From a virus: 50,702 bases of DNA. Made by a program: the position numbers. The stretch lies in UHGV virus genome UHGV-0140686. One strand, written 5' to 3'. Shown here piece by piece: positions 6,001 through 9,000 of this stretch (its first letter is position 1; each line of letters starts with the position of its first letter).

Positions 6001-9000
6001 CTGAGACATAGAAATTCCTTATTAACTGATGAGCGAAGTGGTATCAGTGAATTTGTTGGTGCGGATCACTGAGCCGCTTTAAGCTTTCCATCCACCGTGC
6101 CGGTGATGCCGAACAGCTGACCCTGATCTTCCTGCAGGATGGTGAGCTTGCCGCCTTTGTTGACCCACATAGGTGTTTCGGTGGTGTCCTCTTCGGACGC
6201 TTTGCCGCGTGGGGTAGGGGTGCTGTAATTCAGGCGATGCTTAATCTTGACGCGCTTCTCTTCAACGGAGTTGCCCATACGCTCAAAATCAAAGGTGAGG
6301 ACTACCTTGCCTTTATTGCCGTTGTTCAGAACGCCGAGCGCGGTGGTATTGAGAGCCGCCGCAATCTTATTCATGAACACGCCGGCATCGAGCTCGCCCA
6401 GGAAATCGGGCACGACTGTCATGCGATCATTACTCATGGTTTTTTACCCTCATGAAAGGCGGCTGCAACCGCCGGAATTTTCTCCATACACAACACAGAA
6501 GAGCATCTGCGGTTAGCAGCCGCCCGGGTGGATTGGGTTATGAGCCCGTCGCCCGGTGATGCTCTTTTGTCTTGTGTAAAAAGGGCGGTTACCCATCAGA
6601 ACGTTATCCTCTTCCTCCTTTGGGTAGTGGAAAACTGGATAACCGCCAAGACTACACACAGCACAGTTAACTAGGTTGTGGCGGTGGTGCCTCCACCTGC
6701 CGGGTTAAGCCATAACCGGAGGCGTACACTGCCCAGAAACGCATTCATTGAACGGTTTGGCTCGCTGGGTGCGCATAGCCGCAATTACCACAACGAAGAG
6801 GGCACTGCCGGTGTCCGAATCGAACGGACCTTTTCCCTGCCCATCACCAGATATCGAACTATCCTGGCGTCTGGAATCGAACCAGACTCTGTGCCTTGCT
6901 CGTCAGAGCCCTCATCGTTGTGCGCTGTGGTGGCGGGAGTCGAACCCGCATAACGTCCGGCCGGACCGCATGAGATAACCTGTGTTGCGAACATTGGTTA
7001 GTGCTCAACTCCCCATACGAGGGGCGCTCTATCCATTTGAGCTACACCACAACGGTAAGAGCACTGCCGCCACCCCTTGCGGGATAACCCGTCTGTCTGC
7101 CTGGCGGTAGGGCGTTTCCTGGCATCTTCAGTGCTCTTTCCTGTTGTGTCCCGAACGAACTCTTCCCGGGTGTCACACCTTTTCGCCGCGCTGGTGGGGC
7201 GCACGTCGTGCCTGAAACACTTAGCTTGCACATTTCCGGTTGTCCTGTGAGCGCATGGATAAAGGGAACTCTCAGGCCGCTGACGCTGCATGTGCCATAC
7301 AACGGTTGCGAATATTGCCGTTCACAACTGGAAGCGCACTCCTTCAGTGACAAACCAGTCCCCACGACCGATGGAAGATGGAATGCGCTTTCATGTTGGG
7401 TACGATTCATCTACCCCGGTCCGGCGGCGCCACCTCGCCGGGGCAGATGCAAAGGACCGTTACGCGATCATTCGGCTTGTTGGTATGGCCGGAAGTATCA
7501 AGTCCCGACATCGCGGATTCTGCTTCTCCGCCCCGATTTCACCCCCGCTATTGTTTAGCGCGCAAACCGAGAAAATCGCCTTCAACGCTGTCGGCTTTCG
7601 CCATGTTCGTTCAGGTATCTTCGGGCGGGGTGCTAAGGTGGTGATGAGCCCTTGTCCTTAACACTCCTACTGGTTTTCGGCATTCCTGGCTTGGGTATCG
7701 CCACCAGTTGTAGGAATTTTACTATGAGTTGCGGTTAATCAGGCCGCACCTCTGTTACCCCTCCCGAAGACACCTGCCACTTTATGTGCCTGCTTTTCAC
7801 CACATCAGGCGAGGTGGATCCTGGTTATTCCCCAACAACAAGGATTCGGTTAATCTGGATATCCCCAACAACGAAGAGGTGTTGCTATGAGTGTTATTAG
7901 CGAAGAATTTTTCCAGAAAATTCTTAATAATCTTTCCGAACTACACGGTATAGCAGTGTTTGGTTCAGTTACTGAACCCGGCTATTCCCAGGTCAAAAAT
8001 CGTGCTTCACTCGTATTTGCACTTGAAGTCCTACTTGAGCGACATCGTGAAAAACACGGAACCTTATGGAGCCCGTTACCCGGAAAACTCGCTTTGTTGC
8101 ACTTGATCCTTCAAAAGTACAAATGGCCATTATCTGAAATAAAGGCTTTGACCCTGCAGGAGTCCGTATTCCTCCTTCAGGAAGAATTAAAATTTGAAAA
8201 CCTTCCGGATCTGGCTCAACGTGTTCTCAAAAATTATTTAGCTGACCGAGCTGAACACTACTTCGCTGAAATACGAGAGGAAGAGTGGGATCCAGATCTG
8301 TATCTCACAATTCCAAAGCCGCAGCGATGGTGAGTTCGTCAATGAGTTGATCGACCACTTCGATTGACTGCTTAAGAGCTTCTCTTTCGGCGATTGCGGT
8401 TTTAAGCCGATGTGATGCACTAATTTTCCGTTCCATCCAGGAGATGACCTCTTCCTCGGTGCTGCTAGGAGCAATGATTTTTGGTTCAGTTGCCTTCATA
8501 AGGCCTCCATTCAGTTGGTTAACGTGTTGGGGCATCCAGATTGTTAAAGAGCTAAGCGTCCTACGGGGCGCTTTTTTCATACCTGCGAATCATCCCGGCC
8601 TTCGTATGCCCCGGGCGGCTACTTCGTGGGCGTCCTGCCTGTTCGCTGTTGATGGATTAATAATACAGATAAAACTGTTAATTCGTCAACAGTCAAAACT
8701 GTATTGAGTGGGGGTGTTTACTTGAAAAACTGTAATTTATTGTTTTTTATGAAACTAAAGACGTAAAAAAACCGGCGCTAGCCGGTTCATGTGAGGAAGG
8801 ATTTACCTTTTTCGCCTGTAAATTCTATGTTCGACCATTACGCCGATAATTTTCAACGGGCATTCAGAGCTATTGATGGTGGGGTAGTCGTCATTAAGGG
8901 GGACCAGTTCATATTGCTGGCGGCCTGAAATATCGGTAAATGTAGGACGGTACTTTTTAAAAGTTGCCTCATTATCACCATTTTTAGCAACAACAAACTC

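Follow-up and report, generated by a model that had tools for sequence, protein, structure and literature searches.

Small structured RNAs are found in the early leaders of temperate phages, the C4 RNA of P1/P7 and the CI RNA of P4 being leader-encoded antisense immunity RNAs that are matured by RNase P. Transfer RNA (tRNA)-like sequences also act as processing signals, as in the MALAT1 mascRNA and the 3' external transcribed spacer (3'ETS) small RNA (sRNA) of E. coli glyW-cysT-leuZ. Plant mitochondrial t-elements are a further example (PMC1920247). YrlA, a non-decoding enterobacterial Y RNA, mimics tRNA with its T-arm, D-arm and acceptor-like stem and carries tRNA modifications, and a Y RNA of M. 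smegmatis with a tRNA-like domain is cleaved by RNase P (PMC4201824). YrlA is circularly permuted, its ends at the anticodon side forming the Ro-binding stem; it has a GNCGAAN0-1G motif, and its gene lies beside rsr (PMC4201824). Mimics of tRNA are rare in bacteria and phages (transfer-messenger RNA, tmRNA, and YrlA), and each of them revealed a new use of the tRNA shape. Discussed here is a tRNA-like RNA element in the virus genome UHGV-0140686, a stretch of 50,702 nucleotides that is called the window throughout. The element is neither a decoding tRNA nor a pseudogene, and it appears to represent an undescribed family of phage tRNA mimics.

A tRNA-like RNA with six helices

The cassette, with its closing stem of 9 bp, occupies positions 6924..7053 on the minus strand, as delimited by the Rfam tRNA match and by the consensus fold of 44 homologues. 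In a permissive scan of 6300-7700, the Rfam tRNA model (RF00005) aligns end to end over 7051-6925 with 39.8 bits (gathering threshold 29, E = 1.4e-6), and takes 66 nt, where the anticodon arm would be, for an insertion. Folded by itself, the sequence forms a cloverleaf with extra helices (-52 kcal/mol, z = -2.7 against shuffles). With this score, this fold and 44 homologues that keep the helices, the tRNA likeness of 7051-6925 exceeds chance.

The upper half is that of a canonical tRNA. The acceptor stem, TGTGGTG at 7051-7045 with CACCACA at 6932-6926, has seven of seven pairs. U8 (7044) and A9 lead into the D-arm GCTC/AAATGGATA/GAGC at 7042-7026, which has the GG dinucleotide (the whole at 7026..7044), and the T-arm GCGGG-TTCGACT-CCCGC is at 6933..6949. 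The closing stem is longer than the 7 bp first noted: the 5' strand GTTGTGGTG (7045..7053) pairs over 9 bp with the 3' strand CACCACAGC (6924..6932), the inner 7 nt being in tRNA register and the inner pairs covarying. The outer GTTGTG of the 5' strand doubles as the 3' end of the preceding hairpin module. The 3' strand is followed by GCAC, and CCA is not encoded; 3' of the 7-bp stem GCG is found instead.

The lower half departs from a tRNA. Hairpin A, CCCC-TCGTATG-GGGG (7011..7024), has a stem of 4 bp and a C at loop position 2, which is position 33. It is separated from the T-arm by 61 nt (7010-6950), and these hold two more arms. Long arm L (6971..7007) is built from a TGAG/CTCA base, an internal loop, a 5-bp helix, mismatches, 2 bp and an anticodon-like 7-nt loop, TTCGCAA, at 6991-6985. 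Small arm V (6953..6969) combines GCG/CGT with a hairpin, TCCGG/CCGGA. The initial annotation, made from the sequence alone, had listed the perfect 7-bp acceptor stem, U8, the D-arm with GG, a hairpin with a 7-nt loop and C33, the T-arm, the lack of CCA and an extra section of about 60 nt before the T-arm; all of these are where it had placed them on the minus strand.

Standard searches pass the element by. A default-filter Rfam scan of the whole window misses it and reports only a tRNA-Thr(UGU) and an STnc100 sRNA. ARAGORN, which had been proposed as a check, calls neither the element nor any tmRNA in the window, its sole tRNA call being the same tRNA-Thr(UGU), and it calls none of the copies in relatives. 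The tRNA-Thr(UGU) (21532-21607, plus strand, 69.9 bits) and the STnc100 sRNA (22545-22731, plus strand, 72.3 bits) are elsewhere in the prophage.

Conservation of the fold

Is the extra section a disruption of a tRNA gene? Relatives of the element were collected with two IMG/VR pattern scans, anchored on opposite halves of it, and with other searches, which gave 44 distinct sequences from temperate phages and phage-plasmids of Enterobacterales; blast matches include Cronobacter phage JK004 and an E. coli P1-like plasmid. Helix support was judged by RNAalifold and by an explicit count of pairs over these 44 sequences. Every helix is kept, and the common fold consists of six: the 9-bp acceptor, the D-arm, hairpin A, arm L, arm V and the T-arm. 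The pair positions are actually paired in 97.7% of cases, and 16 of the 39 pairs show compensatory (double) changes. None of 500 shuffles reaches the observed pairing values, and slid partners pair at only 39-51%. Mean column identity among the homologues is 83%, and the Rfam tRNA scores of the relatives range from 27.6 to 42.1 bits.

Covariation is spread over the molecule. Inner positions of the acceptor stem change from G-C to A-U or U-A and from U-A to U-G, the D-stem pairs are kept in 98% (with GCTT/AAGC in the related locus L036), and the T-arm is paired in 100%, with three covarying pairs. Hairpin A follows directly after G26 and has a stem of 4-5 bp, in which C-G is replaced by U-A in 14 and in 7 sequences; its loop varies from 4 to 7 nt (TGAA, AGAT, AGCA and TTGTGT in relatives). 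Arm L has about 13 layers and five pairs with double changes, four of them in 9 to 21 of the 44 sequences, with up to 21 double changes in the 5-bp helix. Two mismatches in this arm are conserved (A-A, then A-C or A-U), and above them are two G-C pairs and the 7-nt loop. In arm V, U-A becomes C-G in 20 sequences and G-U becomes C-G in 3. An alternative pairing of the 5' strand of the D-arm with the junction, GCUCAA/UUGAGC, was rejected; relatives with GGTGAGC leave it uncompensated, and L036 compensates the canonical D-stem.

The nucleotides that build the tRNA elbow are equally well preserved. U8, A9, A14, the A15-U48 pair, G19, C56, A58 and G53-C61 are invariant in the 44 sequences, and at least 90% of them keep G18, A21, T54 and T55. 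Nearly as well conserved as this tRNA core are the junction strands AGUUGAGCAC, UAUCUCAUGCGG and GACGUUAU, also in sequences retrieved by the pattern that excludes those strands. A search anchored on the 5' half alone still returned near-identical 3' halves, and thus the lower half is under selection. The 61-nt section is not a disruption, since it is conserved like the tRNA-like parts and contains two further helices with compensatory changes.

These results modify the initial annotation. Its view of a tRNA-derived structured RNA that is not a standard tRNA stands, and its other suggestion, a disrupted phage tRNA, falls with the finding that the extra section is conserved, folded and compensated. 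The 4-bp hairpin is not an anticodon arm, as its loop is of 4-7 nt in relatives and U33 is found instead in the loop that caps arm L; nor is there an insertion into the variable region, the lower half being a redesign of the whole into six helices. Two doubts raised at that stage can be put aside: homologous prophages keep the acceptor, D and T pairings, and the interval is a single unit, not two unrelated tRNA fragments.

The anticodon-like loop

At the tip of arm L, U33, C34 and A38 are invariant. The triplet is CAU in most copies and CGC in the window, with CGU or a U37 variant in a few, so that the loop reads NUCAUAA, UUCGCAA, AUCGUUA or NUCAUUA. Both CAUAAC and CGCAAC of this loop are complementary to GUUGUG by way of G-U and might pair with it, but copies with U37 break the pairing.

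How far does the element satisfy the definition of a tRNA? The covariance score in the window (39.8) is above the gathering threshold (29), and the 7-bp acceptor, U8, a D-arm with G18 G19 and a T-arm with T54 Psi55 C56 A58 are all in place. A tRNA has an anticodon stem of 5 bp after position 26 and a 7-nt loop in which position 33 is U and position 37 a purine; here this place is taken by hairpin A, of 4-5 bp and with C33 in the window, and the loop that has U33 caps another arm, of about 13 layers, and carries U37 in some copies. A CCA end, which the window does not encode, could be supplied after transcription. The length of 127-131 nt across copies, with 61 nt before the T-arm, compares with 73-93 nt for a tRNA whose variable region has no more than about 21 nt. 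As anticodon arm, length and the tRNA finder ARAGORN all speak for something else, the element is not classed as a tRNA despite its model score. One copy, in the plasmid of E. coli CH468 (RefSeq NZ_JBRBPZ010000006.1; L004 3003-3131), is annotated as a 129-nt tRNA-Met. It receives no ARAGORN call and 27.6 bits with the Rfam tRNA model, which is under the threshold, and the label is probably a mis-annotation.

Location in an early leader

In the window the element lies to the left of a cI-like S24 repressor gene (8803-9435, minus strand), and a cro-like gene (9533-9763) and a cII-like gene are to the right of it. A promoter-like site is present at 8689-8660 (minus), and a leader of about 1.4 kb at 7890-6440 (minus) has no open reading frame with a PHROG match; 3' of it are YfdP-, YfdQ- and YfdR-like genes on the minus strand. 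The repressor gene, the promoter-like site, the stretch devoid of open reading frames and the Yfd genes together place the element in the untranslated leader of the early-left operon. Outside the element the leader matches Klebsiella phages.

The relatives share this setting, the 5' leader of a repressor-controlled early transcript, and the element is always in sense to the operon. The order at locus L043 is repressor, terminator, promoter with operators, leader. The P1-like copies are behind loxP and the C1 operator. In L066 and L109 the element is downstream of nutL-like boxA and boxB sequences, and in L109 it is directly followed by an N-like gene (MAHQGYDNARQRRNDKR...) with an arginine-rich N-terminus.

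L109 (2995-3185, minus strand) and L085 (2355-2550) belong to a second clade, in which the element is downstream of nutL (identified in L109 and L066). Copies of this clade are without the GTTGTGG flank, and their own flanks lengthen the closing stem to about 21 bp; the resulting folds have z = -5.6 and -3.5, and the long stem resembles an RNase III substrate. The leader of lambda N has an RNase III hairpin at the corresponding position. The sequence ACCA found 3' of the stem in L085 and L109 was considered as an encoded CCA end and rejected, as folding with the flanks pairs it with the 5' flank within the helix of about 21 bp.

Neighbouring modules and cassette behaviour

The leader at 7890-6440 consists of RNA modules strung together, and every module is closed by a long stem CACAAC...GTTGTG. 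The stems covary between modules, and the modules are present, absent or reordered among phages in the manner of cassettes. The element is closed inversely, by GTTGTGG...CCACAAC or CCACAGC, and for this reason its 5' strand overlaps the 3' arm of the preceding hairpin. That hairpin, upstream module 1 (7046..7149, minus), has a stem of about 20 bp formed by the inverted repeats CACAACAGGAAAGAGCACTG and CAGTGCTCTTACCGTTGTG. When a 431-nt stretch is folded, the minimum free energy and centroid structures pick different partners for the overlapping strand.

The leader of an E. coli F5 prophage (L001) aligns with the window on both sides of the element, with 90% and 97% identity, and is without window 7142-6923, that is, module 1 and the tRNA-like RNA; the segment lies between two CACAAC motifs. 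Module 1 is gained or lost here together with the element. In other phages four different kinds of hairpin module precede the element, which indicates that it moves independently. It abuts other modules, with 0-3 nt between. In 14 of about 38 contexts an sRNA seed and a terminator are found no more than 60 nt downstream of it; in 10, the window among them, the downstream neighbour is a hairpin module, and in L109 it is the ribosome-binding site of N.

Genuine tRNA genes occur in the same arrays. A tRNA-Arg(UCU) is found in L010 (6839-6917), L013 (3163-3239) and L022 (7547-7623), about 75 nt downstream of the element and right after a hairpin module that ends in GTTGCGG, and tRNA(CAT) genes adjoin the P1-like copies.

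Other modules of the window leader carry motifs of their own. The hairpin module at 6922-6787, present also in the E. coli prophage (L001) and in a Yersinia prophage (L051), contains two free-standing T-arm hairpins at 6886-6870 and 6829-6813 (minus). They have the exact T-arm consensus, with a 5-bp stem, a TTCGATT loop and G53-C61, and their stems covary in L017 and L051. The module at 6786-6680 shares only words of 7-8 nt with STnc100, and no claim is made for it. At 6660-6575 (minus) is an sRNA-like module. Its single-stranded seed, GCUGUGUGUAGUC, matches the seed region of RprA exactly, and 3' of the seed are a hairpin resembling DicF (16 bits with Rfam DicF) and a terminator with a U-run. 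The L004 copy of this sRNA type scores 63 bits on Rfam RprA. The hairpin module at 6578-6487 includes GGGCTCATAACCC at 6547-6535 (minus), which with its flanking C equals, over 14 nt, the anticodon stem-loop of the E. coli initiator tRNA-fMet, its three G-C pairs included. It lies about 100 nt upstream of the start codon of the first gene and is found at 17 related loci, on the same strand. Near the promoter end, a long-range helix of AGGTGTCTTCGGGAGGGG and CCCCGCCCGAAGAYACCT (7776-7757 with 7631-7612) encloses about 125 nt and is conserved in L005 and L006. At 7062-7055, and in the 3' arms of other modules, the sequence TGCTCTTA or TGCTCTT corresponds to the core of boxA; the GT-rich GTTGTGG follows, and the motif is buried in helices of about 20 bp.

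Distribution and novelty

Carriers of the element come from Raoultella, Yersinia, Cronobacter, Enterobacter, Citrobacter, Serratia, Salmonella and E. coli. IMG/VR contains several dozen carrier contigs, one of the two patterns by itself giving 44, and a scan of one genome per species finds two among about 100,000 representatives, in Raoultella and Yersinia. Rfam 15 has no family for the element, and no description was found in the literature searched for tRNA-like elements in lambdoid leaders or beside DicF or RprA. The six-helix layout is unprecedented. The cassette array around the element exchanges its modules between lambdoid and P1-like phages. A dedicated covariance model would mend annotations, as one copy bears a tRNA-Met label in RefSeq and the default filters of Rfam miss the element.

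Possible roles

The structure, conservation, genomic position and cassette behaviour of the element can be read from the sequences compared. What, then, might it do? The reading that is tentatively preferred, to which somewhat less than an even chance is given on sequence grounds, is that of a tRNA mimic expressed upon induction, which RNase III or the tRNA-processing enzymes of the host would release from the leader. Leftward transcription from the repressor-controlled early promoter would yield the RNA only on infection or induction. As the upper half (acceptor, T-arm, D-arm and elbow) is a faithful tRNA, recognition by host enzymes is to be expected, candidates being RNase P, TruB, TrmA, RNase BN or RNase E, and the CCA-adding enzyme. 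Excision from the leader would produce a discrete RNA of about 130 nt, and the same cut would set the modules around it apart from one another: in many relatives the sRNA with the RprA-like seed that comes directly after the element would gain a free 5' side, and in clade 2 a cut by RNase III would part nutL from the N gene. The lower half is a conserved platform of three hairpins whose long arm displays the anticodon-like loop, and the excised RNA might bind or titrate a factor, of the host or of a defence system, whose usual target is tRNA. Should the RNA be processed and bound to such a factor, it would serve as a testable example of how a phage, just as lytic growth sets in, uses RNA to manipulate the tRNA machinery of the host or the defences that target tRNA.

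Several observations weigh against a processed mimic. Efficient cleavage by RNase P is not assured, because the closing stem has 9 bp and the preceding hairpin competes for its outer 6 nt. Copies of the main clade do not encode CCA, and in clade 2 the ACCA is taken up in base pairs. As a mimic of an anticodon the loop of arm L is imperfect, with CGC in the window and U37 in some relatives. In the window the sRNA is about 265 nt downstream of the element, with two modules between. The element is also optional in otherwise near-identical leaders, and it is rare, being carried by 1 of 50,697 phage records, 8 of 72,556 plasmids and 1 of 5,426 E. coli genomes.

Might the tRNA shape be a punctuation signal and nothing else, recruiting RNase P and 3' enzymes to cut the leader and leaving an excised RNA without function? 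The close packing of modules at 0-3 nt, the sRNA and terminator directly 3' in many relatives, reminiscent of a tRNA with its 3'ETS, and the genuine tRNAs that fill equivalent slots in some arrays would all agree with this. Punctuation needs the acceptor and T-arm domain only, however, whereas hairpin A, arms L and V and the junctions are equally conserved and compensated, and many leaders do without the cassette. A mimic is preferred because punctuation would not constrain the three arms or the junction strands, and because the same leader holds other pieces of tRNA, namely the T-arm hairpins and the initiator anticodon stem-loop; a pure processing signal is thus considered unlikely. Less probable again is a part acting in cis in the leader, in protection from Rho, in antitermination with the boxA-like TGCTCTTA or, for clade 2, in control of N translation in the way of the lambda RNase III hairpin. 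The element always comes after the early promoter and before the first terminator or gene; in L066 and L109 it is 3' of nutL, and in L109 the N-like gene lies just beyond it. The stem of about 21 bp in clade 2 (z = -5.6), the TGCTCTT in the 3' arms of flanking hairpins and the competition of the closing stem with the upstream hairpin would also suit a cis role. Such a role has no need of a tRNA elbow with every tertiary nucleotide conserved, and it accords poorly with a cassette that near-identical leaders can lack, with the dissimilarity to the HK022 put RNA and with a boxA-like sequence hidden in a 20-bp helix.

Two further explanations are effectively excluded. A working but aberrant tRNA, aminoacylated and decoding (as Met or like Ile2 in copies with CAU), is highly improbable, even though the top half is canonical, a 7-nt loop with U33 and, in most relatives, CAU is present, and RefSeq has annotated a tRNA-Met. 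The arm that carries the loop has about 13 layers, where a tRNA has 5 bp, and this puts the loop too far from the acceptor end to fit the ribosome, so that decoding can be ruled out; in addition, a hairpin stands between the D-arm and arm L, the triplet shifts among CAU, CGC and CGU without change in the acceptor stem, U37 occurs in some copies, the main clade lacks an encoded CCA and ARAGORN rejects all copies. Least credible of all is that a tRNA gene in decay, or a scar left by integration (att) events and made up of unrelated tRNA fragments, persists here without function. Phage integrases often target tRNA genes, and isolated T-arm hairpins are indeed nearby (6886-6870, 6829-6813), but 44 distinct versions exist in lambdoid and P1-like phages of several genera with all six helices compensated, the whole 130 nt moves as a unit, and the mean column identity of 83% together with the double changes excludes recent copies of one sequence.

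The tRNA mimic reading can be extended to a decoy. Enterobacterial VapC toxins cut initiator tRNA (PMC5175351), and phage tRNAs have been proposed as a counter to tRNA-targeting defences (PMC10264068), which makes a decoy role conceivable. One may speculate from the sequence motifs that the whole early leader is an array of mimics of tRNA parts (the whole tRNA-shaped RNA, the T-arm hairpins and the initiator anticodon stem-loop), released on induction as decoys for tRNA-targeting toxins or defence nucleases (e.g. VapC) or for other tRNA-binding host factors, improbable as this seems at present. If true, it would amount to an RNA-only anti-defence system made of shuffleable cassettes.

Comparison with known systems

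Of the described RNAs, tRNA itself (RF00005), class II tRNAs with a long variable arm included, is nearest in structure. Shared are the acceptor, U8, the D-arm with G18 G19, the T-Psi-C T-arm, A15-U48 and G53-C61, and the 5' half of the element is similar to that of phage tRNA-Arg(UCU). Unlike a tRNA, the element has six helices, 127-131 nt, a 9-bp closing stem and two extra helices in the 61-nt lower section, and it has neither a 5-bp anticodon stem at the canonical place nor an encoded CCA. It is not a tmRNA: ARAGORN finds none, and there is only a partial match of 8.5 bits at the neighbouring T-arm hairpin. Identity with YrlA was considered and rejected, since the element has normal tRNA topology with its ends in the acceptor stem, prophage early genes as neighbours and a different motif; the Y RNA families of Rfam give no match at E up to 10, tRNA being the only Rfam family that the element matches.

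By position the element recalls C4 and CI, which are likewise small structured RNAs in the leader of a repressor-controlled early operon of temperate phages; excision, which they undergo, is predicted for the element. C4 and CI are antisense regulators and not cloverleaves, and Rfam C4 has no match in the window leader or in six relatives. Clade 2 copies on their stem of about 21 bp share the position of the lambda N-leader RNase III hairpin, but the head of the element is a full tRNA-like fold. Homology to the HK022 put RNAs (putL/putR) was rejected, as blastn of the window leader against the HK022 genome gives chance matches only and no module is homologous.

There remain the t-elements, mascRNA and 3'ETS. 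They have in common with the element a tRNA shape inside a longer transcript, beside RNAs whose ends it could define; they conserve the acceptor and T-arm domain only, whereas the lower half of the element is elaborated and conserved. By analogy, the element would seem to work most like these, as a tRNA-like element within a longer transcript, of the kind represented by t-elements and by a tRNA with its 3'ETS.

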